Origin: an uncultured virus (IMG/VR IMGVR_UViG_3300025849_000024)
Taxonomy: Duplodnaviria > Heunggongvirae > Uroviricota > Caudoviricetes > Crassvirales
Length of the DNA: 64,000 bases
Reading direction: 5' to 3' (one strand)
IMG/VR virus record: IMGVR_UViG_3300025849_000024
The notes beneath the pieces are model-generated. The model was not told where the DNA came from. It was given only the letters and a program-made list of their open reading frames with translations, and searched no databases. Position 1 is the stretch's first letter. Each line of letters opens with the position of its first letter. Made by a program: the position numbers and the translations under genes. Of this stretch, positions 15,160 through 62,946 are shown one piece after another.

Positions 15160-15945
15160 TTATTTAAGTTTTTCCACCTCCGTTACAATAGCGGCTGGTG
15201 TAACAGTAGCGTTTCCGTCTTTTACGTATACCTCAATAATGAAGCTATCGTAATTTCTTGCGTTTCCAACTGCTTTAGATGCTGTAACTTTTTCAGCTTC
15301 TATTAAAACTAAATCGTAGTTTCCTGATACTTGAGATACCGGTTGTTTGATGTTTGTTCCACCAAGACCGAATAACCCACCGTCAATAAATCCAGCTTTT
15401 TCAGCTTCAGCTACTTTAGCCTCAGTTCCTACAGAAGGAACAGCAGCAGTACCGTAAACAAATGAACTAGAGTCATTACCAGCTAATCTGAAATGAGAAT
15501 CGATAGGAGCTGTAATTGTAATATCAGCACCTGAAACACTTGCACCAAAACCATAGAACTCAGAGCTTGACTTAGCAAACTCGATATCCATAAGAGCTTC
15601 AATAGCTGCAGCACTTGCACCTTCGAAGGTTTTTACTGGAAGGTTCATTGTACCTTTAGTAGTGTTGATTACTTTTACATAAGCACTTCCTGAATCTAAT
15701 GCAATAGTTGCAGTAGAGGATTGTGCAGTACCAGCGCTATACGCAATAGAAGTAACTTTTTTGATGTTACCTTCGCTGATTGGACCTACGTTTTTTGTAC
15801 CGTAGAATAAAGATGCGTTGTCATCTCCGCTTGATAAAGTAGCTGAAAAAGTTGCGCCATCTTTGACGTAACCAAATTTAGCTGCTTCAAAAGCAGAAGC
15901 GGCAGCAACATCACTGTTGATGATTAGGACTTCTTTTTTTGCCAT
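15160..15945 (-). CDS. Putative auxiliary capsid (stabilisation) protein
   Basis: 261 aa, Ala-rich; position after MCP and ring gene as in crAss-like capsid modules; identical leader to MCP; followed by a terminator. Confidence 0.6.
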   Translation of the reverse strand: MAKKEVLIINSDVAAASAFEAAKFGYVKDGATFSATLSSGDDNASLFYGTKNVGPISEGNIKKVTSIAYSAGTAQSSTATIALDSGSAYVKVINTTKGTMNLPVKTFEGASAAAIEALMDIEFAKSSSEFYGFGASVSGADITITAPIDSHFRLAGNDSSSFVYGTAAVPSVGTEAKVAEAEKAGFIDGGLFGLGGTNIKQPVSQVSGNYDLVLIEAEKVTASKAVGNARNYDSFIIEVYVKDGNATVTPAAIVTEVEKLK

Positions 15946-19031: not shown

Positions 19032-19056
19032 GATAAATAAATATTAAAGATTAAAA
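19026..19056 (-). promoter_or_regulatory. 31-bp leader/start region of MCP, identical to 15940-15970
   Basis: Exact match read from the sequence. Confidence 0.8.
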
Positions 19057-35887: not shown

Positions 35888-36815
35888 TCTACAAATAAAG
35901 ACAGCACAACAAGCTATTAAAGAAGCCGATCAGTTTTTGCACGAAGGTGCTACTGGTAAACGTCCTTACTTAGCTACAAGATGGCAGAAGGTAAACACAA
36001 TGTTGCTTGGTGGTTTTCATTTTGGTCAGACCTATATGCTATGTGGTGCATCAGGTCATGGTAAATCATTTTTTGCTAACATGTTGCACACTGATTTTAC
36101 GTCTAATTATCTAGGTAACCAAGATGTGAAAGTGTTACATTTTTCTTTCGAGATGCATGCAAAAGACGAAATGATTCGTAAGATGAGTCAGTTAGGTAAA
36201 GTAGACTATAGAAAATTAGTCTCTTCTGACAATCCCTTATCTTTAGATGAATTAGAGTCTTTACGTAATGAGTATAGTAAGATGAAAAATGAAAATGTTT
36301 TTTATGTAGAAACCCCCTCTAACAGAGATAGAATTTATGCAACTATTAACGATTTTTGCAAGGAGTTTAAAGACTCTAAAATAGTTATCTCGTTAGATCA
36401 TACCTTGTTAGTAGCCCCAAACCCAGGTGAAAACGAAATACAATCTCTTGCTGAACTTGGTAAAATGTTTATACAAGTCAGAAAAGAGTTTCAAACATGT
36501 AATATTCTGATTGGTCAGATGAATGACAAGATGGAGAGTAAGGAGAGGAGAGATCCAACTAACCCTGCATTACATTATCCAACTAAGACAGACATACATG
36601 GTTCAAAACAAATCTATCATGCAGCGGATGTAGTGATGGTATTACACCAGCCGATATTGTTAAACATAGAGCACTATGGTAAGAAAAGATTTCCTACCAC
36701 TGATCTTGTTGCATTGCACTGTTTAAAGAACAGGACAGGTGTAGCAGGTTTAGTACGCCTTAAGAATAACCTATCTCACGGTAGATTTGATGATTACAGT
36801 TCAACTTTATTTTAA
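35853..36815 (+). CDS. dnaB: Replicative DnaB-like helicase (ATPase domain)
   Basis: 320 aa; GASGHGKS, FSFEM, LDH, GQMN, GSKQIYHAAD, LKNRTG. Confidence 0.9.
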   Translation: MDLNLQTTKFTSLQIKTAQQAIKEADQFLHEGATGKRPYLATRWQKVNTMLLGGFHFGQTYMLCGASGHGKSFFANMLHTDFTSNYLGNQDVKVLHFSFEMHAKDEMIRKMSQLGKVDYRKLVSSDNPLSLDELESLRNEYSKMKNENVFYVETPSNRDRIYATINDFCKEFKDSKIVISLDHTLLVAPNPGENEIQSLAELGKMFIQVRKEFQTCNILIGQMNDKMESKERRDPTNPALHYPTKTDIHGSKQIYHAADVVMVLHQPILLNIEHYGKKRFPTTDLVALHCLKNRTGVAGLVRLKNNLSHGRFDDYSSTLF

Positions 36816-36825
36816 AAACAATTAT

Positions 36826-37497
36826 ATGGAATTACCAACTCAAGTAGTAAAATCAAAAACAGTAAATCCTAGCTTGCTGACTATATTTGGTCAGTCAAAA
36901 GCAGGTAAGACAACTATGTTGTCAAAGCTCGAAGGGTGTCTTATTATAGACACAGAACGAGGTAGTAAATACATCGATGCCTTAAAGGTAGAGGTAGGTA
37001 CAACTAATGAATTAAAACAGCTTGTTGGTGCTCTGAAAACAGAGTCTAACAAGTATAAATATATTGCGCTCGACACAATTGACAATGTAGTATCATGGAT
37101 AGAGAGAGACATAGCCAGAGAGAATAATTTAGACTCTTTTGCTAAACTTCCTTTCGGTGACGGTTACAATCAAGTGCGTACAAGAGTTATGGGGCTTATT
37201 GATGCTCTATTAACATGTAGTGAGCATATTATTCTCGTTGGTCACCGTAAGAAAACAATCATTGGTACAGACTCAGTAGAAGTCAATGTAAGCAGCTTAG
37301 ATCTTTCAGGTAAACTCAAGAATTATATCATGGCTAAATCCGACGCAATAGGATTTGTATATAGAGATGAAGAAGGTGTTCTTAGCATATCTTTCGAATC
37401 TTCTGACGAAGTGGAAGCAGGTACAAGATTACCTCATTTAGCAGGTCAAATCATGAACTTTGACTGGAAACACATATACAAAACAAGTATTAAATAG
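36826..37497 (+). CDS. Sak4-like AAA ATPase (single-strand annealing family)
   Basis: Start at MELPTQ; GQSKAGKTT, IDTERG, IALDTID, ILVGH; followed by SSB. Confidence 0.8.
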   Translation: MELPTQVVKSKTVNPSLLTIFGQSKAGKTTMLSKLEGCLIIDTERGSKYIDALKVEVGTTNELKQLVGALKTESNKYKYIALDTIDNVVSWIERDIARENNLDSFAKLPFGDGYNQVRTRVMGLIDALLTCSEHIILVGHRKKTIIGTDSVEVNVSSLDLSGKLKNYIMAKSDAIGFVYRDEEGVLSISFESSDEVEAGTRLPHLAGQIMNFDWKHIYKTSIK

Positions 37498-39355: not shown

Positions 39356-39958
39356 ATGATAACATCAATAGAGATACCACAGTTCATCAAGAAAGTGATG
39401 GTAGCTAAAGCGCGTAGAATTAAATACTATAAAAAAGGTGGTAAAATACCTAAAAAGTACGCTAATAATAAATTTGACAAAAAAGGACGCATGATTGATA
39501 GTGAAGGTAACCATGTAGTTGCTAACCCTAGAACTATAGGTACAGCTAGATATCTTACAATAAACGGTCAACAGCTGTATAATGCTCGTATGAGCCCTCA
39601 TATGAGGAGTAAAATAGTAAATGCAGTAAAAGATAGTTACATGCCTCATGTTAAAGATGTGAAGCCTATCAAAAAACTGCCAGTAACTATATCATTAGAT
39701 TTCTATGACACAACTAGACAAGCTAATTGGGATTTAGATAATCAATGGTTGTATGGCAAGTGTTTTCAAGATTTAATAGTAAAGTTAGGTATAATACCTG
39801 ATGACGATATTAAATATATAACTCAAGCTAGTGCTCCGCGTTTCTTTCCTGTTGATACAGAAGAAGAAAGAAAGTTGATATTTCATATAAAAACAGAAAC
39901 TCGTGTAGAAATACTAAAACATAAATTTTATGATACATTTTACAGGAAAGGTAAGTAA
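39356..39958 (+). CDS. RusA-like Holliday junction resolvase
   Basis: 200 aa; WDLDN...K.FQD...GIIPDDD matches the RusA acidic triad pattern. Confidence 0.75.
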   Translation: MITSIEIPQFIKKVMVAKARRIKYYKKGGKIPKKYANNKFDKKGRMIDSEGNHVVANPRTIGTARYLTINGQQLYNARMSPHMRSKIVNAVKDSYMPHVKDVKPIKKLPVTISLDFYDTTRQANWDLDNQWLYGKCFQDLIVKLGIIPDDDIKYITQASAPRFFPVDTEEERKLIFHIKTETRVEILKHKFYDTFYRKGK

Positions 39959-40403
39959 TGGTAGAATAGTACCAGACGATCCTATTATGGTTAACGATGA
40001 TCTTAATAAACTACATGATAAAGATGTAGAAGTTACGATCAAAAAGACCAAAACAAGAAGCAATCCACAGAACAGATATTACTGGGGTGTTGTAGTTTAT
40101 CTTATTAAAGAACGCTTTAAAGAGTTAGGCTATACACGTACAGATATCCAACAAGAACATGTAAGTAGTCCTATAACTAGAGACGATGTACATACTTTTC
40201 TTAGAGAGAACTTTCTAAGAGATGATTGGATTGTGAGAGATACCGGTGTAGTAATCGGAACTGTAGCAAAATCAACCACGGAGTTATCTACGGATGAGTT
40301 TGTTATATACTTAGAAAATGTGAGAAATTGGGCAGCAGAAACTCTAGACATAGATATACCTGATCCAAATACTCCTATTAACACAAATATAGAAATCAAA
40401 TAA
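39930..40403 (+). CDS. NinB/Orf-like recombination mediator
   Basis: 157 aa; RSNPQNRYYW...H...STTELSTDEF..Y.E.V...AAE.L.I.IPDP. Confidence 0.75.
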   Translation: MIHFTGKVSNGRIVPDDPIMVNDDLNKLHDKDVEVTIKKTKTRSNPQNRYYWGVVVYLIKERFKELGYTRTDIQQEHVSSPITRDDVHTFLRENFLRDDWIVRDTGVVIGTVAKSTTELSTDEFVIYLENVRNWAAETLDIDIPDPNTPINTNIEIK

Positions 40404-44365: not shown

Positions 44366-44578
44366 ATGACAATAAAAGAAGAACACACAAGACTTATATG
44401 CAAGGCATTAAATAGAACCTACGGACATAGAGAAGAAGCAGCAAAACTTTTAGGAATTACAGCTAGAACTTTATACAGATATTTAAGAGATTATTCTATA
44501 ATCAAAGTAAAAGGAAAATATATAGAAAATGATAAAAACGCAGAAAACAAAGACCCTGGTAACAAAACCAAACAATAA
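44366..44578 (+). CDS. Fis-like helix-turn-helix protein
   Basis: 70 aa; ALNRTYGHREEAAKLLGITARTLYRYL. Confidence 0.8.
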   Translation: MTIKEEHTRLICKALNRTYGHREEAAKLLGITARTLYRYLRDYSIIKVKGKYIENDKNAENKDPGNKTKQ

Positions 44579-45559: not shown

Positions 45560-46465
45560 ATGGATTATTATAAAAGTACAAAAATCAGCAATTCTTCTTT
45601 AAGTTACATAAACCCAGAACAAGGAGGATCACCAAGAAAATTTAAAGATTATATAGATGGTAATACTAACAACATTAGTACACCTTCTTTGTACACAGGT
45701 ACAACTATTCATCAATACTTTTTAGAACCAGAAACTTTTATGGTATCAGACGTCGACAGACCTAGTGATACTATAGTAAAAGTAATAGATAAAGTTTACG
45801 AAGTCACTAGAGGTGAGTTAAATACGGACATAGAGTCTCATGATTTATACTTACTAGGAGCAGCTAAAGAGTTTGGTTATGGACAGTCTTGGAAACCAGA
45901 AACATTACTTAAAAAAATCATCGATCAAGGTAAAGAGTACTATAACTTTTTACACAGAGCGGATGGCAAGATTTGTATAGATCAAAAAATGGCTGCTATG
46001 TTAGCAAACATAAAAGAATCTGTAAATAATCATGCAGGCGTTAAAAAACTGTTGTTTGATACACCAGGAGTTAACGAAGAGGATGTATATTGGGGACCGA
46101 ATGAAGCATACAAATCTAAAATAGATAGGTATACTTCTAATGCGCTTATAGATTTAAAAACAACATCAAAGTCATTATCTTTCTTTAGAAGCTCTTTTGA
46201 TTACTATCATTATGATAGACAGCTTGCCTTTTACAAAGACGCTTTAGAGTGGATAGGAAAGCCTGTAGAGCAATGTTATATTATAGCTATAGAGACAACC
46301 GGTTACAACCAAGTACGTATCTTTGAAGTTGGTGAGAAATTGATTGAAGAGGGTAGACAAAAATATAAAGATCTACTTAACAGAATAGAGTACCATCAAC
46401 AAACACAACAGTGGATAGAACCACAAGAAGTGTATGAAAATAATGGTATAACTTTATTTAACTAA
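45560..46465 (+). CDS. PD-(D/E)XK nuclease (RecE/ExoVIII-like)
   Basis: 301 aa; ISNSSL, GTTIH, E...KSKIDR...IDLKTT, Y.RQLAFY. Confidence 0.85.
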   Translation: MDYYKSTKISNSSLSYINPEQGGSPRKFKDYIDGNTNNISTPSLYTGTTIHQYFLEPETFMVSDVDRPSDTIVKVIDKVYEVTRGELNTDIESHDLYLLGAAKEFGYGQSWKPETLLKKIIDQGKEYYNFLHRADGKICIDQKMAAMLANIKESVNNHAGVKKLLFDTPGVNEEDVYWGPNEAYKSKIDRYTSNALIDLKTTSKSLSFFRSSFDYYHYDRQLAFYKDALEWIGKPVEQCYIIAIETTGYNQVRIFEVGEKLIEEGRQKYKDLLNRIEYHQQTQQWIEPQEVYENNGITLFN

Positions 46466-48777: not shown

Positions 48778-51700
48778 TTAGTTGGTTAACTTAGTAAAGT
48801 TCTTCCAAGCTGTCTCAGGATCGAATTGTACTCCACCACTGTACCCTAAAGATTGCAATACTCTTACTTTAAATTTACTTTCTCCTTTTTTCCACACACC
48901 ACTATCTCTTTTATATTCTGCAAATGGATCTGACAATTGTGCAATAAGCTTTTCAGCACGTAGTATAGAATTAGTCATTGCTGTAGGTGATCTTAAAATT
49001 CTAAGTAAATCCGATACTGCTCCAAAGGTTGGTGCAAATGCATTAATCTCTCCTTTTAACGTAGTCATTAGATACAATAAATAATAAGCACTTGTTGGTA
49101 TTTCATCATCATCATCTTCTACCATTTGTGTTAATATACCTACTAGTGTACTAAGTATTGCTAACGTTCCTATTTCATACAGCGCTCTAAAAGCCTTCTC
49201 TTTATCTTTAGCTGTTACAGTAGATCGTTTGTATGCATCTTTTAACTTTTCTAAAGTCTTAGCTTCAGTACTTGTTTTCCAGTTATCCATCATATTATTA
49301 ATAAACCATCTGTAGAATCCTCCATCTACTTGATTTGTCTCATGATTAACAAATTGTGTTCTGTATCTGTTTAACAATGTAGGTACAAGAAATTTTCTAA
49401 AAAGCTCTAACATTCTACCTCCTGAAGATTGAGACAAAACTGATTTGTCCATACGTCTGTAGTTACCATTCAGCCTTCTATTCATTTCTCTTATCTCTGA
49501 AATTGTCTGAGTTACAAGTTTTTGTGCTTTTGCTTGTTCCGCTTCTGTACCTCCTACTAGTTCTAGTAATCCGGTTTTAGGGTTTACATAAAAAGCATTA
49601 TACAAGTTATATTTTTTACCGTCTAAAATTACTTCTTTATTTTTAAGATGTGCGATCATAGCTCCTCCTTGTGCCGCTACCTCACCAATATGATAGTTAA
49701 TTAACAATGTATCAGTACTTAAAAACTGTCTCATTGCAGTTCTACCTGATACTTGTTTACCTACTAGATCTTCAAAGTTACCTTGTATACCATCAAACTT
49801 GATTAACATTTGTCCTATAAAAGATCTGTTACCCAGTTTATTGTATTTGTCGTCATACAAGTCTTTTATACGAGTCATCATTTCTTTATGACCATCAGCA
49901 AACTGAGATGCATTTATAAGAGCTGAGTTACCTCGACTTGCACCAGATTCAAAGAGTTGTTGAAAAGAAGCAGTCAAATAGTTACGTGTACCTTTTAAAA
50001 AATCAAGCCCTAATGTAGTTACAGCTGTATATCCTAGTATAGTATCAATAATTTTATCTACTTGTATTTCTTTAGTACCAACAGTTACTTTTTCTATTTT
50101 TTTAGTCTTACCTAAAAGTACCATTTCAATGTATTTCTCTAGTCTCTTCTCTATTATACTTTCTCCTTCTTGTATTTCAGATCTCTTTTTACCAAATTTA
50201 GCTAGTGCTGTTTTATTTAGTCTTTTAGGATCCTGTACTTGTCTATTAGCAAACGTATCTTGTAATAAATATGCAATTTGTAATAACTCATTGTTCTTTT
50301 CAGCAGTAAGAGCGCCGTTAGAAAACATACTAAGAGACGTCATTACGTCTAAAGAAACATCATTAGAGTCTATATCGTCCATAAACATTACAGGAGCGTA
50401 TTGTTCTGATTGTTTATCTAATGCAGCTATACCATATGCAATTGCATCATCCTGGTCTACAGTAAATAATCTAGAGTATGCTTCTTTGATTTCACTCAAC
50501 GTTCCTTTTTCAAGAACTCTATCTAAAGCTCCTTTACGTATAGAAGGCAATGCCATGTTTACACTTTGTTTTTTATATACAAGTGCTAAAGACTGGTTAT
50601 AAATATCAGTAAACTCTTGGTGTGCTCTACCGTTTTGGTTTTTAGGAAAACCGTCGGAATCATATAAAGAAGTCCATTTTTTATTTATGTAAGATTTGTT
50701 AGGTCTAGTTACCATATATCCAAAGTATGATGCAGAAGATTTACCTTTAAACTTACTGTTTGCTTTTTCTACAGCCTCTATAGCATCAAACTCTTCTTGG
50801 TCAATAAATCCATTTTCTAACGCTGCTTGTGCATTCATTTGTGTAAGAGCCCAAGCTTTAACATCTCCTCCAGCTTTACGTGCAGCATTTTGTATTTCTT
50901 CTGTGTTTTTTGCAACAGTGTTATTTTTAAACCATCCAGATCTTCTAAGACCAAATCTTACAAGTTCTTTTTCTGTAGGACCATTAACTTTAATAGTCTG
51001 CAGTCTTTTTAGATTATTTTGTAAACTGTTTATAACAAATGATACAGTTTCTTTGTTTTCTAGCTGATCGTATTGAGCTAATTTGTTTTCTACTTTAGTG
51101 ATGTCTTGTTCTATTTTTGCTAAATAATCTATACGAAGATCTAACAAACTTGCTTTAAGCTCAGACTCTGCTTTTTCCTGTGCTTTATCAAAAGCTGTAT
51201 CATCGTATTTAGTAACGAGAGTCCACACATCTTTATTACCAGTTGTTCTATTATTTTTTAATTCAATAATAGGTTCGTAGATTTTACTTACGTCATTACC
51301 TATATTCTTTCCTTCTATTAATGTGTCATATGCATCCTGTAGTCTGTTGTGCACAGCAAGCATTCTCATTCTCTGCTGATCATTTAACTGATGGTTCATA
51401 TTTATTAGACCCGCAAGTGTAGGATCAGAAGATGTAGACGGAGATGTCAACAAATACATAAAATAAGAATCATCTTGTAAACTGTAACGTAATGCTCTTG
51501 CAAATGCCTCTTCAGACTGCGGTGCCTGACCTACTATTAATTTTAATTTTTCTACTCTATTGTTTAATACGCCAAGCATTTTAGCTTTTTCTTTTTGTGT
51601 CTTAGAGCTAGCTTTTATTTTTTCTCTTTGTTTGTTTATTTGATCTAGTTGTATGTCTACATATTCTTTAGTAGCCGGACCAGACGCTTCTACAAATGGG

Positions 51701-54700
51701 TATAACTTTTCAGCAAGTACTGGTATATATTCGTCTTGTAATTTGTTACGTAATTTATTTAACAATGCAACAGAGTCATTAAGCTTACTAACTTTACTTC
51801 TGTTGTCTTTATCGTCTTTTAACTCCCCTGCTTCTATTTGTTTAATAAGTGCTCCAGGTAGTTCATCTAAGAAAGTAAAACTGTTTAATAAAATTCTATA
51901 TTTATTAAATCCTTCTATACGTTCTTTTATATCTCGTTTATCATTTGCTAGAAATAAATCTAACAAATCACTAGATTCTTTTACCTCTTCGTAAAATGAA
52001 TCAACAGATACAAAAATATCTTTAGCCGCTTTGATATCAGCAATTTGTTTTGCTAATCGTGCTTGTCTGTTTTTAACAAACGTTGTGTTTTTAATATTCT
52101 GTTTTGTTTGAGCTAACTGGTTCTCAAGAATAATAAGAACGTTATTTAATAAATTGTTATATGGATCTACAGTATTCATAGACTCAATCTGTTCAGTGCT
52201 ATTAGCAACAAACGGTTCTAGTCTAACAATTGTAGCCTGTGATGATTTAAATATAAAGTCTGCAAGCTTACCTTTAGCTTGTTTTTTCATATCAGTAAAA
52301 GAACTATAACCTAATTCTTTAGCTAGTTTCTCTTTACTTATTGTAGATAGATCATTGATGTTGTTAATAGGGGTCTTTCTAATAATAACTGCTTTACCAA
52401 AATCCTTACTACCGTTTGTAATGTTTACAACAGCATCCTGATTTGGTATTAGTCGACCACTAAAGTCTATGTACACAGTAGGATCTCCTGCTGCTAGATT
52501 TGCAGTTGCATTTGCATCTACTTTAAGTGCTATGTCATCAAACAAAGTACCATCACTAAGTGCATACATATTTCCAACATTGGATTGTGTACCATACTGG
52601 AAACCTTCAGCACCTATTAACCTGTCTACAGGTTGTAGTATTTTTGCTAGTTGCTCTAACTCAGATCCTTGTTTAATATCAATACCAAACATATTAGCAA
52701 GTAGCTTAACAAACTTACTCCACATGCTTTCTAATATACCCTGCTCGTTAGGAGACATAAGCTCATTAAGATCATTTATTAGCTTATTATCTTTGTATAA
52801 TAAATTTGTTATGATCTCTTCTGCTGCTAATTCTTCAGGATTAGGCTGACCCTTACCTTTATAAAGATTTACATATTGGTTAAAAATCTTTTGAATCCTT
52901 TTTGCATTTTCATCTCCTTTGTGATTTTTAACTAATTCTTTGTACCAACTTAAAACATCACGTCTTAACTTTTTCTGATCGCCGTCAGGTAACAAATCAA
53001 GACCTGCGTGTAATGCTTCTTCTAAAAATTTAGTTTTATCTAACTGTCCAAGAACAATAGTATTAGATTTACCGTTATAGTAAGTATCACCCCCTGGAGA
53101 ATAGTCAACTTTAACGTCTTTAATCTTATCTAAAAGATTAGACATTTCATCAGTTTTAAAACCAAATTGCTCTTTCATCTGCGCTACAGTGTAAATACCT
53201 GCAGAAAATACTGGTGTTCTGTCTTGTTCTACCTGTTGCTCAGGTAAAGATTCGCCTTGATAAGCAGTTGTTTTATTTTTTGCTTTTTTATAAACTTCTT
53301 CTAAATCTTTTAAATTTTCTTCTGTTGCTTTGGTTGCTGTATCTAGCGCATCAGAAAATCTTTTAAAACTACTAGCAGGCATGTATCTAATAAAAGAGTT
53401 TGCACTAAACTCTAACATACTAGATGCCATTAAATATTTTAACAAGTTGTCAGATAATGTAGGAAAGTCTTCAAACAAATCTTCTAACTGACCCATAAGT
53501 TGTGCAGATACCTCATTACTCATTTTGGTAAATGAGTCTGCTACAAGTACTTTTTTGCCTTGATCATTACTTTCTATTTGTAACAAACTATGCAATGCTA
53601 TGTTGTAGTTATATTTAGGATCTTTTTTAAGGTTCTCTATCTGTTGTATAGTAGCTGCTAAGTCAGAAGAACTAGACTCTCCATATTCTTTTACAAAAAC
53701 ATTATATACTTCCGCAGGTTTTAAAAAAGTGTCTGCAAGATTACCAGCTAGGTAATTCATTGCGTTACTGTTATTTTGATATACTTTATGATTAGCAATT
53801 ATTTGTTTAATAAGTGCACTTGTTTCAGGATTCTTATCACTTTCAGTAAAAGCTTCACGAATTCTATCTAAAGCTACTTTATCTTTTACTCCTCTAGTTG
53901 TAGCAAGTAACCCTGTAGCGTTTAATCCAGTAACACCAGTCCAAGCTAAAATAGAATTAGCATTTAGCATTACTATTTTTTGTACAGCAAGAAAATCTCT
54001 CTCATCTTGTGTAAGCTCTTTTCTTTCTAGAAGTTCAGTAATATTATAATCAGCTAATAAAGCTTTATCTAACGCCTCCGTAGTAAGTGCTACAGCATCA
54101 AACTCAAACGGACTAAATTTTTGTAATAAATTATGTCTAATACGACTTTGTCTTTCTTTCTTTTTAGTAAGAGATAGTGTATCTAAATCCGATTGCAGGT
54201 TTTTTAACCTAGAGTATTCTTTTAATATAGGTTGATTAACAAACATAAATGCTCTAGACTGTCCTGCTGCAAGACCAATAATGTGTCCCGCAATACTAGT
54301 CATATCGTCATCCAGGTTTAACTTAGGTGCAATACCAAGTTTAACGTTATCTACAAATAATGTAATCAAAGAAGATATAGAATCAAACTTACTACGTGCT
54401 TCTTCTTCAACATTCAATCCTGTTTTAAGATTTACGTCGTCTTCATATATAGGCTCAAAGCTATTGTAGTTTACACCATCAATTTCAAAACCAACTTCTG
54501 GTTTATATTTCATTTGTGTAAGCATTGATACAAGAGCGTTTAAGTTAGCTGCAATACCAATGTTAGCCTCACCAATTTTATTTGCAAGGTTAAAATCTAA
54601 GTTACCTACTACAGTAAATATAGACTCTTTAGTAAAATCAAAGTTATATTTATCTATTACGTCTTGTGCAACACCTTCAGTAGCAGGAGTAAACATCATC

Positions 54701-57700
54701 TCTGCAATTTCAGGTTGACTAAATATATCTAACATGTTATCTAACATGTCATTTTGTAGTACTGCCGGGTTATCGGTAGCACCTATATTTAATCTTTCCA
54801 TTGCCTCTTTAACAGAAATAGCATTACCCTCTTCATCTTTATAAGATCTTCTCATAGATTTTATAAGAGGTTGCTGTGCCCAATATGCTTCAGTAGCTTC
54901 TGCACTATTAGCAGGAGTTACTACCTGGTTACCAGATACAACAGTAGATGCATATCTATGTAAAAATAATTTATCTAAATCGTAATCAGATCCTGCAAGA
55001 GATGGTAGCTCTAAAGGCGTAACCATTGTATCTCCTTTACTATCTGGCAAAAACCCTACAACCTTAATAGGTAACATAGAGTGATATGTTTGTGTAGGTA
55101 TACGTGCTGCAAATGCTGTAAGCAATCTATCCGGTATGTCTTCTATATTATCAAACTTAGTTAAGTTAAAGAATTTTTTAGATACAAGTACCTCAGCAAA
55201 TTCTACAACTCCATTGTTTAGTCTGTGTATTTTTAACGGCTCACCTGTTTGTGGATTTAAGTAATGTGTACCAGAAGCTAGCGTAGCTATACCTCCTGCA
55301 ACATTAGATCTTAATGCTCCTTTATTATACAACGATATCATAGTTTGTTCTATAACCGGTTGTATGTGTGGTAAGTTGTAATTATATGTTTTTCCGTCTT
55401 CAGTCAATTGTAACAACTCAAGCACTTCAGGACCCCTAGTATTTTCATTCATACTGTATACCATGTCCTTAAATGCCTGATTGTTTTCAGGTTGTAATAA
55501 AGACTGTACAGCTTCTAAAAATATTTTTTTCTGATCCGCGTTTGCATTGTTTATGTTGTCAACTAATTCTCTAGAAGAACTTTCAGTCAGCATAGATCCA
55601 AACAAATCATGTACTTGCTTTGCTAGCACTGATTCTGTCTCTCTACCTTTTTTAGATTTTGTTCTATTGATTACTTGGTCGCGCTCAAACTGCATTTCAC
55701 CGGTGTGAATTAGTCCTTCGTCGATAGTAGTATCAAAACCTTCAATCATTTTATCTGACTTACGCTTAGATGCACTCTCTGGAATTAAATACATAATTCT
55801 ATTTGCATTAAGCATGTCGTATATCTTACCTAGTTCAGGGTGTGCTTCCGCTTCTTCCTGTGTAATAATATTATCAGACTTCTTAAAATATCTATTACCG
55901 TCTTCGTAAACAGTTTTTGTAGAATTTAAATCTAAGGAGTTTATTTCTTGCGGTGTAAGCTCTATAGATGGATCATCTAAACGCTGTACTAATTTTTCGT
56001 AAGCTCTTTTTTGCGTGGCACTGGTAAAATTACCAGATTGCAGTTCTCTAAATGCATACATCTCTTGTGTCATTAACACCTGCGCATCATTAGAGGCTGC
56101 CTCTACTCCTTGGAATGTAACATTAGAATCAGCATACATAAGGTATTTGTACTTCATACGCCCTTTAATATCTCCAGAAGCATGAAAACCAGCTAGACGT
56201 TTATTAAAATCAATGTCATCTACAAAGTTACTATCACCATGAAAGAGCTGTGTAAAACTTGCACTATTTATTAAATGGTTAATTGCAAGCTGACCAATCT
56301 TGTCATTAGCAGACATGTCTGTATCTTTAGCACTAGGTGTTAGTTGCTCCAGGTTTAATCCTAACATCTCTGTTCTAGTTGTAAGATCTGCTACCACTTT
56401 TTCTAACATAGGTCGTATAACCTCTTCTTTCATCTTAGTCTCAAACGCAGCTGTGGCATTTTTTCTAGATTTAAGATAGTCAACTACGCTTGTACCGTCT
56501 GCTAACATAGCATTATTAAGTACAGATAAAATACCAAAATAATTTGGAGTTCCTTTTTTACTTTTAAGTTGTTTATTTGGATCCTGGTTTCTTTTAAACT
56601 CACTAAGTAACAATCCATATGCATCTTCTATAGCTGTAGGTGTAATACCTGAAATTCCATCATAGTAGTTTTTAATAGGTAATCTTACAGTGTATAACGA
56701 GCTTTTAGATTCAATAACATGTGGTATGTAATAACCGTAACCTTTTACATCTTCGTTCATAAACAAAGAGTACATAAGCATAAGTCTCTGTTTATCACTT
56801 AGTTGTTTATTAGTAGCTGTTGATTTTGTAGTAATAGGATTTCCATTACCATCAAAATCTGAATCAGTAATAGAAACATCTCCTGCAAAAGCAACTGTTA
56901 GATTACTTAATACCTCATCGTTATTTAAAACGTTGTTTGGATTAGTGTCTAAAGAACCATTCTCAGCTAGTTTTATTATATTCTCTAAGTAAAGATTTTT
57001 AGCTACGTATCTATAGTGCGACTTACCCTTTGAATCTCTATAGTTTGCTTCATAGGTAGACATGTCAAAAGCTTGTGCAATATTAGCAAGCTCCATAACT
57101 TTTTTAGATCTTACATTTACTCCTTTAGCTTTATCAAATATATTTTGGTCTCCTATTAAGTCAGTTAAGTACCCTTCAGAGTCTAACCCGTCAGGTAATA
57201 ATTCAGGAAAAGCCTCTCTTAGTTTTGTATCACCTAATAAGTAAGCAGCAAACGCAGGAGTTACATCCCAACCTGCTTTAGCAAAAGATTTTACAATTGC
57301 ATCTACACCTTCTTGTGTAAATCCATCTTGTCCTAACCTTTTTGATATTTTAGCTAGTTCTTGGTTAAGTACTTTTCTGTTTGTTTTACCCTTCCATCTA
57401 TTAAAGATCTGATTAGCACCAGAGCTTTCTACAGGATTTACAAAGAAAAAGTTTCTTTTTGGTCCTGTTATAAAACGTAAGTAATCAACAGAAAATTTGT
57501 TAAAAGCATTTAAGAATTGTGTTTTAATATCTTCATTACCTTTTGCATTTATTGCACCAAGTACTGCAGCTTCTATAGATTCATATTGCGCAACAGCTTC
57601 TAAACGTTTTATCATATCTCCCTCTGTAGATTGATTAGATAAAAGCTTCATAAGATGACCAGATAGTGTGTGACCATCCATAGTCTTTCTTATAATTGTT

Positions 57701-60700
57701 TTAACTTTTTTGCCGTGAAGTTCTCCTTCCCATTTAGTTCTACCAAAGAAATCTGTCTCTGGCATTATAATGTAAGATAAGAATCGTTTTACTCTAGCAG
57801 GTAAAGATTTAACTCCCCCAAGCTCTGTAAAGCTTACGTCAAACCTTCTAAACATTTCCTTATCCTCATCCGCAATATTTTCTTCTTCTGCTAGCTGGTC
57901 TTCTACAGGTTCTTCTGTGTAACGTAGTTGTTTTATTGCATCATCAATAATATTTTCTCTTACTGAGTCATTTGCTAATAAAATATTTTTAGCTTTTGAA
58001 GCTTGTCTTGCCTTTTGTCTTATTGCTTCAACTTCGGCAGCTGTCATATTTTCTTGCTCAATAAAAGAGGCAAGAGTAAGACCTGCAATGTATTTATCTA
58101 GTATGTATGCTAGCTCTAGTTCATCATATGGTGTGTCTTTAAGAACAGCACTCATAATTTCTTGGTTTGATCTAAATCCTAGACCTGCTTGATACTGTGC
58201 AACAACTTGTCTTACAATATCTTTATGCACCTCAGACTTTAATCTTTCAGAGGGCAGAGCAAGCTGTCCATTAAATTCGTCTTCTAAAAGCTTTTTAATT
58301 TCTTCCGGGGTATATACATCCTTCTTTGTTGTAAGAGTCTTAGCGTCGTCAACACCTTGGTTAAAGTCTGCTTTACTTATTACAATAGGAGCATCATCAA
58401 CCTCACTAGTTTGTTTTAGTTCACCTAAAGAGTCTTTCATTAAAGAAACAATGTCCTCATTGCCTAAATATACTCCATCATTACCAAACTCAGCTTTGTT
58501 AAACCTTTCCATAGTGCTCATGTTAATCTCCATATTTGAAGTACCAACTTGATTATTTCCTAAATCTAACAATCTAGAAACAACACTTCCATCAGAAGCA
58601 GAAACTCTATCTATAATTCCATATTGATAAGTAGTTCTTACAGCCTTTCCTTTTTCATAATTAACAATAGACTCGTTTATTTTTTTACCTAAATAATCTT
58701 CTATAACTTTTGGATCATCGCTTCTTAGTATTTTACTAATCTCTTTTCTGTCATATTCTTTTAAAACATCTTGACTATCTAATATAGACTCATTTTCTTT
58801 AACCTCACTAGTTTGTTGTGTTGGTGCTTCAGATACTTCTGATTCAACTGCTTCTCCTGCATCTAATGCATGTAACCCTTCCAGGTTAGGAGTAATAAAA
58901 AGGGTAGGATTATAAAAACCAGACGACCCTGCAACAATTGTAGAGCTAAACATATCAGGAGATGGTGTACTATCTTTAGGTACAAACTCTCTAAAACTTT
59001 CTTTAGTAACTTCTAACCCGTAAGCTTTAAGCACTTCTTTATTCATTCGAGTCATAATAGACTCTAGGTTTTGACCAGTAAGAAATGGAATGTTTTTAAC
59101 TAGTGCTTTTTTCTTTGTATTATGATTTACATAAGAGTTTAGTCTAAATTTTCCCTGATATCTTTCTACTCTAATATTAAAGTCAATGCCTTTACCAAGA
59201 GCTACAAAAATCCCTAACTTTTCATTTAATTGTTTAGTATAGTTTGCTCTAGCCCCTCTGTCTTTGTTGTTATAGGCTTTTGCTTCTTTAGAATTAGGGT
59301 CATTAAGTTTAGCAATCGTTTCGTTTATTTTGTTTATACTTTGTTGAACAGATTCGAATGCTACCGTTGCTGGCATAATTCGAACCCATTTAACTACACT
59401 GCCTCTTTTAACTAAAGCAAAGTATCTACCGTCAAAGTCCGGTAAAGTTGCTGTATGATCCGCTGCAATGTCCTCCCCTATAATAGTCTCACCTTGCTTA
59501 CGATCGTAGATTCTATATTCTCCGTCATAAGTATGGTCATCGTTTTCAGTAATTTTATATCTTTTAAATACGCCTTCTTTAAGGCTGTTTAACCCGGCAT
59601 CAGTATTAAAACTGTATAACTCAGAGTTTAAAACAACAGGTTCACCGTTTGTAGCATTTGGATAGGCTTTTTCTAAAGCTTCAATCATAGACTTAAGCTG
59701 TAAATAGCCCTGCTTAAATTCTTCAAACTGGTCATTAGTAAACATAGAACTTCTATGCATGTTATTGTAAAAGAATTCTTCAGTTATTTGATCTCCTTCG
59801 ATTAATTTACCTTGTTTATCGTAAAACCTGTTAGGTGTACGAACTACAGATACAACTTCATTAGTACGTTTGTCTCTTAATTGCAAATAAGAACCGTTCA
59901 TGTTAATATCCATGTTCGTTTCTTTAATAGATGTTTTAGGATTAAGCTCTCTTTTTATATTAATGAATTCAATTTGTAAATTGTTAATTAAGTCGGGATC
60001 AGTTACTATAAGTTTAGCTAGTTGATCTGATTGTGCTTTGTTCAACCCAGTAGCTTGAAGCCAATACGATGTTAAAAAATTACCTTCATGTCGTAAACCT
60101 TGTGAGTATGGAAATAGTTTAGAGGCTACTTCATTTGCAGGCATTTCTCTATTAGGTTTACCCGCTATCAGGTTTTTAACTTCATAGTGTAACTTGCCGT
60201 TTTTCATAAACTGATTTACAACCTCGTAGGTTTTACCAGTTTTACTTTTAACGTGTGTTGGTAGTTCTGCATTAACCTGACCATAGTTTTGATCAAAAGT
60301 TTCTTGTTCTGCTATAGATTGTGCATTTGCGAGCTGCTGTTGTTTTCTTTCTTCTGCTAAAACACTCTCAACTTCTGAGTCCTTTACAGCTTTAACCGGA
60401 TTACTTACAACTTCTTTTACTTTCTTTGCGGCTTTTTTTACTCGCTCTTTTGTTGTCTGCTTTTCTGATGGCGGTGTCTCGTTCTCTGTTTTTTTGTCTT
60501 CGTTCTTTTTAATATTTTCCTTAACGGATTCTTCAAACGTAGCTCTTTTAGCAGGGTCATATACAAGATCTTTTAAGTCTCTATTTATTTTTTTAATCTT
60601 AGCTTCTTGCTTTTCTATTTCTTTTTGTACCTGTTCATCAAGCTTTTTTTCATACTGCTCATCATTAACCTTAGTAGAATCTGTTTCTTTTATACCAAGA

Positions 60701-62946
60701 GCCTTACGCAAATCTCTCATAGCAGTCATGCTGTTACCAGCTTCTGCTTGTCTTTGCTGTAAAAACTTTATATGTTGTTCTGAAATACTTTTGTCTCTAA
60801 GTAACCCTCGAGCTCCTCTTAATACAGTGCCTGATAAGTTTTCCAAGTCAAACTCTTTTACTTGTTCAGGATCCGCTAAAGATTTTAATACATCATTAAT
60901 AAACTTGTTATTATTATTGTTGTACGTCTCTTTCATGTCAAGCTCTAAAAGTTTTTGTTCTTTCTGAGCCTCTGTTAGATTTTCATTACTAATTATTCTA
61001 GCACGAGTTCTTGCAGTTTTATCTGCAGTGTCTCTATTGCTTTGTTCATACATTAGTAATCCTCCTGCTAACGCCTGTCCTTTAGGACCTAAGTAACTGT
61101 ATTGTACAGCATTTTCCTGCCATAACCCATTTAAATCAGATACTCTTTTTCTAAGTTTGTTTGCTTGATACTTACTAAGAGCTTCTTGCGCTTCTAGTGC
61201 ATCTATTTGATTTAAAACATCCTTAGATTTTCCGTTAGATATGTACTGCATCATTGTACGATCTGCAGTATGATTTGTAACAAAACGGGATCCTCCACCT
61301 AGTATAGCACCTAAAGCTGCTTCTTCTAAATGGTTACCCATGTCATATTTTTCCCATTGGAATTTACCTTTACCGTAATCTTTACCTTCTCCCCTTAGCA
61401 TGTTATACGTCTGCTTTGCACCGTATACAACATGTCCTTGTATAAATTCTTCTGTTGCTTCTTCAAGAGCAGATCCTGTACTTCTTAAAAGTCTTCCTCC
61501 AATTCCTTTAGCTGTATTACCAGTAGCTTCTAAAGCATTAAACACCTTTCTTAATAAAGGTCCTGTAGCTTTATCTAGGAAAGTCATATCATCAACTCTC
61601 ATCCCAGACTTTTTAGCGTAGTCTAATATAGTCTTAGAAATTATTCTACCTCCCCCGGTACCCATTGCTTTGTTAGCTAATGCGTTTGTTCCTACTCCGT
61701 ATTCTATAAGTGAATTAATAAACCCGGTAGTTAATGCTAATGCAGCAGCCTCTTCTTCATCAATACCATCACGTTTTGCTTGCTTGTATACTTCACCAGA
61801 GTTGATTACCATACCGCCTCCTAAGTGACCTACCATACTTGCTAGTTTAGCTGAATGTGCTACACCAAAAAGTTTAGCTGCTTTCAATGATACAGCTCCT
61901 ACACCCTTAGCTATAGCTCCTCCAAGTCCCCAAAATTGTACAAGACTTGCTAAACCACTACCTATACCATCTGCTAGCGCTTCACCGTTAGCAAACATGC
62001 TGTCTGTATTAGCTGCAGCAGATTTTTGTAGTTTATTAAACTCCTGCCCAAATCTATAGTCAGCTGCTACACGATCCGTCTCCCCTACTTGTGCTTCTCC
62101 TACGGTAGCCCATTCATATAGATCACCAGTCATTTCTGCAAAGTCTAATATGCTAGAAGATAAACTAGAAAAAGTATCACTAAACGCATCAACAGAAGAA
62201 GAAATGCCTCCTTTACGTGCTACTCTAGCTCCATAAGGATTTAATAACGCTCCTTGTAAATCATAAAAGTTTTTTTCATCAAGCTCAGTTTCTTGGAGTA
62301 CCCATTCTTCTGTCTCTTTGTCAAAGACTGGATAAAAACCATTTTGTTTGTAGGTCCCATCTTGTAGGTATCTTTGCGCTCCATGAAAAAATAAGACTTG
62401 ATTATCTTTTTCTCTTGTTTTTTGTATTCCTTCTTCGGAAGATATATCACCCCAAGCAAAAGCATCCCAGTCAAGTTTATCTCCTGGTTTTGTTTTGGTT
62501 TGATCTGCATAAAAGCTATCTGTTAAACCTCTAGTACGTCTTAATAACTTACCATCAGTATCAACACCCATAAGTTTGTCATACCAAGAAGCATTATCAA
62601 ACTCACCATTCTCATAATCTCCATCTCTGAAGTCTTCAAACTCTCCATCAATATTTTTTACTTTACCTATACGTGCTAATTCTAGACCAATTTGTTGTAG
62701 TTGAGTGTTAACATCATCTCCTCCTTGTCTATTGTTATAAGTAGTTGAATCTACATCTCCTATATTCCAAGACGACGGTGCATATTCTAAAGGTATCTCT
62801 TCATTAAAAATTGTATTATTATTAAAGTCTTGAACATCTGAGTCAGAACGTATAACACCCTCTAAGTCAATAGGTTGTAGATTAACAGGTTGTTCCTGCG
62901 GATCCGTAACTTGTCCACCGCCTTGATACTTTTTAGTTCCTTTCAT
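48778..62946 (-). CDS. Giant virion RNA polymerase / ejection polyprotein (crAss-like vRNAP)
   Basis: 4722 aa; ARIPTQ..HSM...VGFLP...GD...P...AGSDYDLDK catalytic region (DYDLD at 54973-54987); G/A-rich hydrophobic N-terminal region; zincin-like segment; hydrophobic C-terminal helices. Confidence 0.9.
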   Translation of the reverse strand: MKGTKKYQGGGQVTDPQEQPVNLQPIDLEGVIRSDSDVQDFNNNTIFNEEIPLEYAPSSWNIGDVDSTTYNNRQGGDDVNTQLQQIGLELARIGKVKNIDGEFEDFRDGDYENGEFDNASWYDKLMGVDTDGKLLRRTRGLTDSFYADQTKTKPGDKLDWDAFAWGDISSEEGIQKTREKDNQVLFFHGAQRYLQDGTYKQNGFYPVFDKETEEWVLQETELDEKNFYDLQGALLNPYGARVARKGGISSSVDAFSDTFSSLSSSILDFAEMTGDLYEWATVGEAQVGETDRVAADYRFGQEFNKLQKSAAANTDSMFANGEALADGIGSGLASLVQFWGLGGAIAKGVGAVSLKAAKLFGVAHSAKLASMVGHLGGGMVINSGEVYKQAKRDGIDEEEAAALALTTGFINSLIEYGVGTNALANKAMGTGGGRIISKTILDYAKKSGMRVDDMTFLDKATGPLLRKVFNALEATGNTAKGIGGRLLRSTGSALEEATEEFIQGHVVYGAKQTYNMLRGEGKDYGKGKFQWEKYDMGNHLEEAALGAILGGGSRFVTNHTADRTMMQYISNGKSKDVLNQIDALEAQEALSKYQANKLRKRVSDLNGLWQENAVQYSYLGPKGQALAGGLLMYEQSNRDTADKTARTRARIISNENLTEAQKEQKLLELDMKETYNNNNNKFINDVLKSLADPEQVKEFDLENLSGTVLRGARGLLRDKSISEQHIKFLQQRQAEAGNSMTAMRDLRKALGIKETDSTKVNDEQYEKKLDEQVQKEIEKQEAKIKKINRDLKDLVYDPAKRATFEESVKENIKKNEDKKTENETPPSEKQTTKERVKKAAKKVKEVVSNPVKAVKDSEVESVLAEERKQQQLANAQSIAEQETFDQNYGQVNAELPTHVKSKTGKTYEVVNQFMKNGKLHYEVKNLIAGKPNREMPANEVASKLFPYSQGLRHEGNFLTSYWLQATGLNKAQSDQLAKLIVTDPDLINNLQIEFINIKRELNPKTSIKETNMDINMNGSYLQLRDKRTNEVVSVVRTPNRFYDKQGKLIEGDQITEEFFYNNMHRSSMFTNDQFEEFKQGYLQLKSMIEALEKAYPNATNGEPVVLNSELYSFNTDAGLNSLKEGVFKRYKITENDDHTYDGEYRIYDRKQGETIIGEDIAADHTATLPDFDGRYFALVKRGSVVKWVRIMPATVAFESVQQSINKINETIAKLNDPNSKEAKAYNNKDRGARANYTKQLNEKLGIFVALGKGIDFNIRVERYQGKFRLNSYVNHNTKKKALVKNIPFLTGQNLESIMTRMNKEVLKAYGLEVTKESFREFVPKDSTPSPDMFSSTIVAGSSGFYNPTLFITPNLEGLHALDAGEAVESEVSEAPTQQTSEVKENESILDSQDVLKEYDRKEISKILRSDDPKVIEDYLGKKINESIVNYEKGKAVRTTYQYGIIDRVSASDGSVVSRLLDLGNNQVGTSNMEINMSTMERFNKAEFGNDGVYLGNEDIVSLMKDSLGELKQTSEVDDAPIVISKADFNQGVDDAKTLTTKKDVYTPEEIKKLLEDEFNGQLALPSERLKSEVHKDIVRQVVAQYQAGLGFRSNQEIMSAVLKDTPYDELELAYILDKYIAGLTLASFIEQENMTAAEVEAIRQKARQASKAKNILLANDSVRENIIDDAIKQLRYTEEPVEDQLAEEENIADEDKEMFRRFDVSFTELGGVKSLPARVKRFLSYIIMPETDFFGRTKWEGELHGKKVKTIIRKTMDGHTLSGHLMKLLSNQSTEGDMIKRLEAVAQYESIEAAVLGAINAKGNEDIKTQFLNAFNKFSVDYLRFITGPKRNFFFVNPVESSGANQIFNRWKGKTNRKVLNQELAKISKRLGQDGFTQEGVDAIVKSFAKAGWDVTPAFAAYLLGDTKLREAFPELLPDGLDSEGYLTDLIGDQNIFDKAKGVNVRSKKVMELANIAQAFDMSTYEANYRDSKGKSHYRYVAKNLYLENIIKLAENGSLDTNPNNVLNNDEVLSNLTVAFAGDVSITDSDFDGNGNPITTKSTATNKQLSDKQRLMLMYSLFMNEDVKGYGYYIPHVIESKSSLYTVRLPIKNYYDGISGITPTAIEDAYGLLLSEFKRNQDPNKQLKSKKGTPNYFGILSVLNNAMLADGTSVVDYLKSRKNATAAFETKMKEEVIRPMLEKVVADLTTRTEMLGLNLEQLTPSAKDTDMSANDKIGQLAINHLINSASFTQLFHGDSNFVDDIDFNKRLAGFHASGDIKGRMKYKYLMYADSNVTFQGVEAASNDAQVLMTQEMYAFRELQSGNFTSATQKRAYEKLVQRLDDPSIELTPQEINSLDLNSTKTVYEDGNRYFKKSDNIITQEEAEAHPELGKIYDMLNANRIMYLIPESASKRKSDKMIEGFDTTIDEGLIHTGEMQFERDQVINRTKSKKGRETESVLAKQVHDLFGSMLTESSSRELVDNINNANADQKKIFLEAVQSLLQPENNQAFKDMVYSMNENTRGPEVLELLQLTEDGKTYNYNLPHIQPVIEQTMISLYNKGALRSNVAGGIATLASGTHYLNPQTGEPLKIHRLNNGVVEFAEVLVSKKFFNLTKFDNIEDIPDRLLTAFAARIPTQTYHSMLPIKVVGFLPDSKGDTMVTPLELPSLAGSDYDLDKLFLHRYASTVVSGNQVVTPANSAEATEAYWAQQPLIKSMRRSYKDEEGNAISVKEAMERLNIGATDNPAVLQNDMLDNMLDIFSQPEIAEMMFTPATEGVAQDVIDKYNFDFTKESIFTVVGNLDFNLANKIGEANIGIAANLNALVSMLTQMKYKPEVGFEIDGVNYNSFEPIYEDDVNLKTGLNVEEEARSKFDSISSLITLFVDNVKLGIAPKLNLDDDMTSIAGHIIGLAAGQSRAFMFVNQPILKEYSRLKNLQSDLDTLSLTKKKERQSRIRHNLLQKFSPFEFDAVALTTEALDKALLADYNITELLERKELTQDERDFLAVQKIVMLNANSILAWTGVTGLNATGLLATTRGVKDKVALDRIREAFTESDKNPETSALIKQIIANHKVYQNNSNAMNYLAGNLADTFLKPAEVYNVFVKEYGESSSSDLAATIQQIENLKKDPKYNYNIALHSLLQIESNDQGKKVLVADSFTKMSNEVSAQLMGQLEDLFEDFPTLSDNLLKYLMASSMLEFSANSFIRYMPASSFKRFSDALDTATKATEENLKDLEEVYKKAKNKTTAYQGESLPEQQVEQDRTPVFSAGIYTVAQMKEQFGFKTDEMSNLLDKIKDVKVDYSPGGDTYYNGKSNTIVLGQLDKTKFLEEALHAGLDLLPDGDQKKLRRDVLSWYKELVKNHKGDENAKRIQKIFNQYVNLYKGKGQPNPEELAAEEIITNLLYKDNKLINDLNELMSPNEQGILESMWSKFVKLLANMFGIDIKQGSELEQLAKILQPVDRLIGAEGFQYGTQSNVGNMYALSDGTLFDDIALKVDANATANLAAGDPTVYIDFSGRLIPNQDAVVNITNGSKDFGKAVIIRKTPINNINDLSTISKEKLAKELGYSSFTDMKKQAKGKLADFIFKSSQATIVRLEPFVANSTEQIESMNTVDPYNNLLNNVLIILENQLAQTKQNIKNTTFVKNRQARLAKQIADIKAAKDIFVSVDSFYEEVKESSDLLDLFLANDKRDIKERIEGFNKYRILLNSFTFLDELPGALIKQIEAGELKDDKDNRSKVSKLNDSVALLNKLRNKLQDEYIPVLAEKLYPFVEASGPATKEYVDIQLDQINKQREKIKASSKTQKEKAKMLGVLNNRVEKLKLIVGQAPQSEEAFARALRYSLQDDSYFMYLLTSPSTSSDPTLAGLINMNHQLNDQQRMRMLAVHNRLQDAYDTLIEGKNIGNDVSKIYEPIIELKNNRTTGNKDVWTLVTKYDDTAFDKAQEKAESELKASLLDLRIDYLAKIEQDITKVENKLAQYDQLENKETVSFVINSLQNNLKRLQTIKVNGPTEKELVRFGLRRSGWFKNNTVAKNTEEIQNAARKAGGDVKAWALTQMNAQAALENGFIDQEEFDAIEAVEKANSKFKGKSSASYFGYMVTRPNKSYINKKWTSLYDSDGFPKNQNGRAHQEFTDIYNQSLALVYKKQSVNMALPSIRKGALDRVLEKGTLSEIKEAYSRLFTVDQDDAIAYGIAALDKQSEQYAPVMFMDDIDSNDVSLDVMTSLSMFSNGALTAEKNNELLQIAYLLQDTFANRQVQDPKRLNKTALAKFGKKRSEIQEGESIIEKRLEKYIEMVLLGKTKKIEKVTVGTKEIQVDKIIDTILGYTAVTTLGLDFLKGTRNYLTASFQQLFESGASRGNSALINASQFADGHKEMMTRIKDLYDDKYNKLGNRSFIGQMLIKFDGIQGNFEDLVGKQVSGRTAMRQFLSTDTLLINYHIGEVAAQGGAMIAHLKNKEVILDGKKYNLYNAFYVNPKTGLLELVGGTEAEQAKAQKLVTQTISEIREMNRRLNGNYRRMDKSVLSQSSGGRMLELFRKFLVPTLLNRYRTQFVNHETNQVDGGFYRWFINNMMDNWKTSTEAKTLEKLKDAYKRSTVTAKDKEKAFRALYEIGTLAILSTLVGILTQMVEDDDDEIPTSAYYLLYLMTTLKGEINAFAPTFGAVSDLLRILRSPTAMTNSILRAEKLIAQLSDPFAEYKRDSGVWKKGESKFKVRVLQSLGYSGGVQFDPETAWKNFTKLTN
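58399..58817. repeat. Identical 17-bp direct repeats, 402 bp apart and in frame, inside the vRNAP gene
   Basis: AACCTCACTAGTTTGTT at 58399-58415 and 58801-58817; both copies encode QTSEV. Confidence 0.9.

Follow-up and report, generated by a model that had tools for sequence, protein, structure and literature searches.

A DNA word of about 24 bp, read in frame, quite probably acts as a recombination anchor in the giant virion RNA polymerase gene of an uncultured crAss-like phage, and sequence comparisons suggest that a mobile domain of 134 codons entered a one-copy word site in this gene by short-homology recombination. The window, that is the whole analysed stretch of 64,000 nucleotides, is part of an 85,787-bp genome (IMG/VR record IMGVR_UViG_3300025849_000024). 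The features at the slot and in the gene that carries it are as follows.

48778..62946, minus strand: giant crAss-type virion RNA polymerase gene, 4,722 aa, which carries the slot (open reading frame and core matches)
58801..58824, minus strand: upstream word copy PTQQTSEV, with the exact 17-bp repeat at 58801-58817; equal to the consensus of the word in other phages
58414..58803, minus strand: body of the mobile module, 130 residues (aa 1382-1511); absent from close relatives and present in unrelated giant genes
58399..58422, minus strand: downstream word copy ELKQTSEV, with the exact 17-bp repeat at 58399-58415
54973..54987, minus strand: DxDxD catalytic motif, GSDYDLDK at aa 2654, a motif known for crAss RNA polymerases (PMC7886860)

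The first-pass annotation of this DNA described two identical 17-mers that bracket an in-frame segment, and this description holds. The copies at 58399-58415 and 58801-58817 are exact, lie 402 bp apart and both encode QTSEV in frame on the minus strand with the flanks given there, at aa 1378 and aa 1512 of the open reading frame, so the module cassette between the word copies comprises 134 codons. No further copy of the 17-mer with up to three mismatches was found in the 64-kb window, and no third copy of the word with up to six mismatches in 24 in the whole genome. When the codon order of the gene is shuffled, an exact repeat of at least 17 bp appears in 23 of 300 shuffles, and within 1 kb in 4 of 300; given that the peptide is present twice, the identity of the codons has a probability of about 0.021. 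The repeat by itself is only modestly above chance, and it is the comparison with other phages that makes it real. The unit is better defined as a word of about 24 bp (PTQQTSEV), over which the two copies in the window differ at five positions. A longer in-frame repeat of 18 bp (ALIKQI) is also present in the gene at 51835-51852 and 53800-53817, 1,965 bp apart; it recurs in a relative (L130/L131) and behaves as a chance-like word in the collection scan.

Presence and absence of the segment in relatives had been named as a check, and such variation was found: relatives are empty, filled or doubly filled at the slot. The slot is the only indel of at least 8 aa in comparison with all four close full-length relatives (P0014, P0015, P0017 and P0018, with 93, 90, 88 and 80% identity respectively). 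An allele with neither word nor module is found in L073, P0014, P0017 and P0018, of which L073 and P0014 may be one phage, and in a contig from run X9 position 58390 is joined to 58823 by 15 other letters, a net difference of 417 bp that keeps the frame. A one-word allele without the module, reading SEAP-AQQT(T/S)EV-(E/N)AAP-VEGEGP, is found in L077/L078 and P0015. Two words with the module are found in the window, in L074 and in 517-bp contigs in X9, X13 and X18. Finally, a single contig in X8 (record 19) carries three words: it is identical to 58200-58824, continues with 411 other letters and resumes at 58804, which gives an extra 432 bases (144 codons) upstream of the module. Filled and empty forms occur together in the same runs (X9, X13 and X18). 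This survey is based on contigs, not raw reads, from seven of the 20 runs listed as containing the region, 19 of which are marine, seawater or viral metagenomes; one run, X3, may be the source of the window DNA itself. Apart from this slot the protein has no large indels, and as a set of alleles from wild phages found together the locus is exceptionally clear-cut.

The exact 402-bp deletion allele that had been proposed as a target was not seen among the contigs of the seven runs or the relatives, where the differences in the empty alleles amount to 384 or 417 bp. Compared with the product of a clean excision, the one-word allele has six additional codons on the downstream side, and the allele without a word resembles the outcome of another small deletion, between EAP and AAP. 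Because four empty alleles lack the word, the linker also appears to change by small deletions at other microhomologies, and the relatives without any word keep a full-length open reading frame. As judged from these alleles, insertion into a one-word site fits better than excision. In L074 and in the filled contig of X13/X18 the downstream word has the Thr variant, like the empty site in L077, and the upstream word has Ser, a split that would be expected if a crossover inside the word divided a one-copy site. The same split in other filled alleles means that the perfect 17-base identity is peculiar to the window allele.

The module is also found in genes that are otherwise unrelated to the window gene. 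In L001 (same record as L075) it has 90.8% DNA identity over 402 nt and lies in the open reading frame upstream of the RNA polymerase gene; in L076 it has 87.3% identity over 432 nt and is followed by a NADAR domain. Neither locus has any other blastn match to the window gene, and the module match stops at the word. Further carriers are P0016 (95 of 115 residues, with QTSEV on either side of the module) and P0005 (69 of 115), both in distant proteins of 4.7-5.7k aa. When the window is compared with L074, pS is 0.015 in the module and 0.21-0.29 in three flanking stretches, a difference which indicates that the module crossed backgrounds recently. Between carriers the module has pS of 0.19-0.25 and pN of 0.04-0.05, that is purifying selection, and it is therefore a maintained protein domain, yet a dispensable one.

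Nine distant relatives of the module were found in the representative library, eight of them in proteins of 2,289-5,724 aa, and an HExxH motif is present in six of the nine proteins. Only two of the nine have word-like flanks; the domain family thus extends beyond the word. L002 (E 6e-4) was excluded as a likely chance match. The module has no match in cultured or deposited phages, and no stand-alone version was found among 1,316 candidates of 66-237 aa or 536 candidates of 245-2,000 aa, which are weak negatives.

An exact scan of IMG/VR for the word gave 40 viral contigs, with the word in the QTSEV frame of a long open reading frame in all 40. The control 17-mer, taken from the other repeat of the gene, gave 58 loci but only six of these in its frame. 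The raw number of matches was rejected as evidence because the control had more, and the weight of the scan lies in frame and context. The surplus of control matches, the 23 shuffles with such a repeat and the chance-like 18-bp repeat elsewhere in the gene would all suit a scenario in which a single illegitimate insertion into a linker that tolerates such changes left the repeat, as a target-site duplication or by chance, and no wider system exists. This explanation is contradicted by the word-carrying module in unrelated phages, by the frame and context shared by all 40 matches and by the other slots described below, and it is highly improbable.

A scan at the peptide level, with synonymous positions free, gave 30 loci. 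Two (L061 and L064) were dropped because of a stop in frame and a GC content of 52%, and the remaining 28 represent 19 contexts. Consensus codons number 142 in these contexts compared with 75.0 expected from the codon usage of each open reading frame, and the first six codons are all consensus in 17 of the 19 (0.33 expected). Of 66 further copies with up to six mismatches in 24, counted over the loci of both scans without dereplication, 65 are in frame. A scan for spaced pairs added one more locus, L081, with a module of 145 codons. One protein (L036:1501-2067, minus strand) has a second linker word, TQPSTSV, beside the QTSEV word, which may mean that a single phage pool contains two overlapping families of linkers.

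The 33-base word region gave 72 records in deposited phages, all at E 0.3 or worse and none crAss-like in a tally of the organisms, which were rejected as chance. In prokaryote genomes a 19-mer of the word gave two matches in 596 Gb, which is about chance level and gives no sign that hosts act as a reservoir of the word. One of these matches is out of a long frame. The other lies on L080, a 3.2-kb contig from a genome record, where the word is in frame within a long, AT-rich open reading frame; this is probably a phage contig binned into a genome.

Conservation of the repeat at the DNA level beyond the peptide, another check named at the outset, was found both as fixed synonymous codons and as pN not below pS. 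In 34 distinct copies outside the scan selection, pS is 0.072 and pN 0.153 for the eight codons of the word, and 0.098 and 0.118 for the last five codons, unlike the module and the flanks where pS is about 2.4-11 times pN. Third-codon bases are near invariant at six positions (32-34 of 34 copies), and the core Gln is conserved in 32 of 34 copies while Glu changes to G, D, V, K and L. With pN no lower than pS and third positions almost constant, an element kept only for its protein sequence becomes less plausible. Common ancestry of modules that spread recently appears to account for part of the codon fixation, inseparably here from selection on the word.

The word might instead be kept as a peptide, either as a protease site (for example after the near-invariant Gln) or as an unfolding spacer that frees the modules after ejection, with the DNA identity as a by-product of shared descent. 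The conserved Gln agrees with this, as do the HExxH motifs of zincin type found near many word-bearing loci, the proposal by Iyer et al. that polyvalent proteins are processed by zincin peptidases (PMC5512222) and the view that passage through the tail requires partial unfolding of the cargo (PMC10172136). However, the relation of pN to pS, the variable Glu and a codon choice fixed far beyond codon usage all speak against a peptide role, the zincin-like motif of the window protein is EEALH and not HExxH, and relatives without the word keep a full-length open reading frame. We consider this explanation unlikely, and the protease site suggested in the first-pass annotation is disfavoured by the finding that pN is not below pS in the word. 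A cleavage role may be added to the role of the word as DNA.

The slot in the window is one of several. Shared segments were analysed in 56 loci (one per contig) from 29 backbone groups, and 11 DNA segments are common to different groups. Of their 21 internal ends, 18 lie within 20 nt of a word copy compared with a background of about 3% of positions per locus, an enrichment that is inflated by the choice of loci that carry the word. Series of empty and filled forms were found at three more slots. The first is empty in L004/L015 and filled with 137, 168 or 171 codons in L062, L041 and L048, the second is empty in L033, holds a NADAR module in L054 and an array of at least three modules in L056, and the third is empty in L035 and filled in L044. 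The NADAR-bearing slot of L054 recurs in L045 (2500-2990, plus strand) with a frameshift and a stop inside the module, which may be a sequencing error or a decaying insert.

Altogether, 32 distinct word-bounded modules of 72-196 aa were cut from the 56 contigs. Four of them pass the Pfam cut-off (cpYpsA, NADAR and, twice, DUF7831), five have weaker matches (ART-PolyVal, AAA_18, NADAR, DUF7831 and one that is likely noise) and 23 have no Pfam match. Many of the word loci are in proteins related to P0005 and P0012, which bear the DxDxD motif.

The genome of the window phage is equipped with genes for recombination of the annealing type.

36790..37497, plus strand: Sak4-like single-strand annealing protein, candidate agent of the exchange (PHROG 124, E 3.9e-33; Pfam AAA_24, E 1e-29)
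39356..40403, plus strand: genes for a RusA-like resolvase and a NinB/Orf-like recombination mediator (PHROGs 4632, E 2.4e-12, and 72, E 4e-14)
45560..46465, plus strand: exonuclease VIII-like gene, candidate partner for resection (PHROG 412, E 4.2e-34; Pfam DUF3799)

The gene neighbouring the Sak4-like gene has no family match. In phage HK620, Sak4 anneals single strands together with its SSB and is a weak annealase alone (PMC5928155), a pair of AAA and DUF669 proteins repairs phage DNA by recombination (PMC13687109), and T4 recombines at homologies of 2-10 bp (PMC9391042). Searches for tyrosine and serine recombinases (PF00589 and PF00239) gave no match in the genome, which is rated complete; the control for the PF00589 search gave a signal in 14 of 14 genomes. 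No hairpin was found at the word copies (z -1.07 and 0.57 in 61-nt stretches).

These results bear on the idea that a dedicated integron-like, site-specific system acts on the word, in which modules excise as circles with one word and integrate through an unrecognised recombinase of phage or host. The modules start right after a word and end with a word, the third-codon bases are nearly invariant, and insertion at a one-copy site would yield two copies, as in L074 and X13/X18 where the downstream word has the base of the empty site and the upstream word is of donor type; the mini-circles of PeSLs provide a precedent (PMC2839356). But the split-site pattern fits short-homology recombination equally well, the copies tolerate up to six changes in 24, and the genome has one slot only, with neither a recombinase match nor a hairpin at either copy. 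A dedicated system of this kind is improbable. The annealing-type genes, the lack of a recombinase and the unfolded copies favour short-homology exchange over both a site-specific system and a role of the peptide only, although 17-24 bp is short for homologous recombination, which counts against this explanation.

Exchange by short homology would take place in co-infected cells, between phages that have the word in common, and would be driven by the annealing machinery of the phage itself (the Sak4-like protein, the exonuclease, RusA and NinB). Insertion of a module at the word would add a domain in frame to the polymerase polyprotein, which is probably injected, and the peptide rich in Q, T, S and E would be a tolerated spacer. 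Each module would bring one word, so arrays could grow, and the modules would be delivered with the polymerase before early transcription. The notion of a recombination anchor, first proposed from the repeat pair, has gained from the variation at the slot, the module transfer that ends at the word and the conservation at the DNA level, while the exchange itself is deduced from the comparison of contigs. A broader reading is that the word is a community-wide in-frame cassette standard in aquatic crAss-like phages, actively recognised by a phage recombination protein, that lets any phage plug a pool of counter-defence domains of 70-200 residues, many of unknown fold, into its injected polymerase in the manner of an integron within one reading frame. 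We hold this broader reading to be possible but doubtful.

The identity of the host gene rests on its core, which matches 105 phage records with RNA polymerase as annotation in the top rows (best E 2e-10, 24-29% identity); no RNA polymerase match was found among PDB sequences by phmmer. The protein has both the DxDxD motif and homology to the crAss RNA polymerase core, as crAss-like virion RNA polymerases do. Portal, terminase and capsid are recognised by PHROGs in the same phage, which places it among the crAss-like phages, and the records nearest to its terminase are crAss-like ones and those of Flavobacterium Fpv3/FpV4 (37-39%). A profile built from four related RNA polymerase regions matches the protein from aa 1657, which puts the slot about 140 residues N-terminal to the matching region; the DxDxD motif follows the slot at a distance of 1,140 residues. 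Neither Pfam nor PHROGs gave a family for the whole protein or for the module.

The polymerase polyprotein is probably injected with the DNA, by analogy with crAss001, where three RNA polymerase-associated proteins were detected in virions (PMC10172136), and with phi14:2, whose RNA polymerase is a precedent for virion cargo (PMC7886860). The zincin-like segment at 53008-53022 (aa 3309) reads EEALH, without HExxH, in the window and in all four close relatives, which suggests an altered or inactive peptidase site. A motif Y-[QA]-x-G-G is located near the N-terminus of the polymerase (62910-62946; aa 7) and of two genes upstream in the same block (G000 C1 64831-68696; at aa 86 in one and at aa 12 and 78 in the other) and is a possible shared signal for packaging or processing.

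A structure prediction for the enclosed segment followed by Foldseek had been suggested as a way to identify it. The model from an alignment of 12 sequences is confident (pLDDT 81.3, pTM 0.75; pLDDT 37 from the single sequence), and no PDB or BFVD match was found at E 0.001. The predicted fold is compact alpha/beta, with three helices, a meander of four strands plus a short strand, and further helices. The best match by VIA-align has Z 5.0 at an rmsd of 8.8 Å, which is too weak to decide on a known fold, and the top hit in the ESM Atlas (0.85) is unnamed, with no match for P0007. At the sequence level the best E is 0.08 against Pfam and 0.011 against PDB sequences, neither of which counts as a match.

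Most invariant positions of the module are Gly or hydrophobic residues; one Tyr and one Asp are also invariant. Since no catalytic motif can be recognised, the module is taken as most likely a binding domain that would act on a host factor. Whether it counters a host defence has about even odds: NADAR proteins give other phages a means against DarTG1 (PMC11825919), and this precedent, the one piece of functional support for the anti-defence idea, concerns other modules. Self-removing elements were considered as well. Inteins have a terminal Cys or Ser and His-Asn as junction residues. These residues are absent from the module, no Hint domain was matched by Pfam and no Rfam family in 56000-61000, and an intein or a self-splicing intron was ruled out on these grounds.

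Polyvalent proteins are large phage proteins composed of several domains; they are presumed to enter the cell with the injected DNA, their sets of unrelated domains vary, and virion RNA polymerases fused to zincin peptidases are one example (PMC5512222). The window protein resembles them in having an RNA polymerase core and a variable module, and the word-bearing proteins carry NADAR, cpYpsA and DUF7831, with an ART-PolyVal-like module below the cut-off among the word-bounded ones. The module in the window, on the other hand, appears to belong to no listed polyvalent family, as judged by Pfam and PHROGs. In the defining paper, recombination of cassettes is raised as a possibility for one kinase locus only and without a shared DNA boundary, and its main text does not contain 'crAss', 'linker' or 'direct repeat', although its supplement might list such linkers (PMC5512222). 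The system described here can be viewed as a putative polyvalent-protein variant whose modules are bounded by a sequence read in frame. It would provide a testable mechanism for the gain and loss of domains in these proteins, which the defining paper left open, and the 24 bases are a search handle that cuts candidate early-acting phage domains from metagenomes with exact boundaries.

Described crAss-like virion RNA polymerases (phi14:2 gp66; crAss001 gp47/49/50) share the DxDxD core and the place in a block of large genes beside virion genes, but the window gene differs in being one open reading frame of 4,722 aa with a variable slot. The accounts of these polymerases in PMC7886860 and PMC10172136 deal with divergence, introns and recoding and, in the parts available, not with repeat-bounded modules. 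The shuffling of PeSLs in T4-type phages is similar in that a short conserved repeat mediates gain, loss and replacement of accessory sequence; PeSLs, however, are intergenic cassettes of promoter and terminator that move whole genes, whereas the word is in frame, unstructured and moves domains (PMC2839356). The word lies inside an open frame in all 40 loci and does not fold, unlike the intergenic promoter and terminator stem-loop that define a PeSL. In T4, recombination at short homologies likewise reshapes the counter-defence content, and the injected proteins IPI and IPIII act against host defence, but the microhomologies are unique chance matches of 6-10 bp and the IPs are separate genes, whereas here one word is used across genomes (PMC9391042).

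The word-bounded modules also invite comparison with other cassette systems, and they are internal and stackable as opposed to C-terminal replacements. Integron and polymorphic-toxin cassettes are arrays of exchangeable units with one boundary element each. Integrons have a tyrosine recombinase as integrase and an attC hairpin with an imperfect palindrome, and nothing like either was found here. No description of an in-frame boundary system of the word type, or of its motif strings, was found in the literature, with subscription papers and supplements largely outside the search; the available part of PMC12386605 has nothing on such a system.

Some further observations concern the rest of the genome. 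The whole genome lacks the sequence CCTAGG, of which 7.3 copies would be expected, a hint that the phage avoids a host restriction site. A tandem array with a 6-bp unit is located at 15-55, near the end of a tail-fibre-like gene (8..2806), and a change in its copy number would keep the frame. A radical SAM gene resembling spore photoproduct lyase is found at 44529-45371 in this marine phage (Pfam SPL, E 6.6e-15). Two genes on the minus strand, 15160..15945 and the major capsid gene at 17592..19031, have an identical stretch of 31 bp over the start codon and upstream leader (15940-15970 and 19026-19056), which looks like a shared late promoter or leader.
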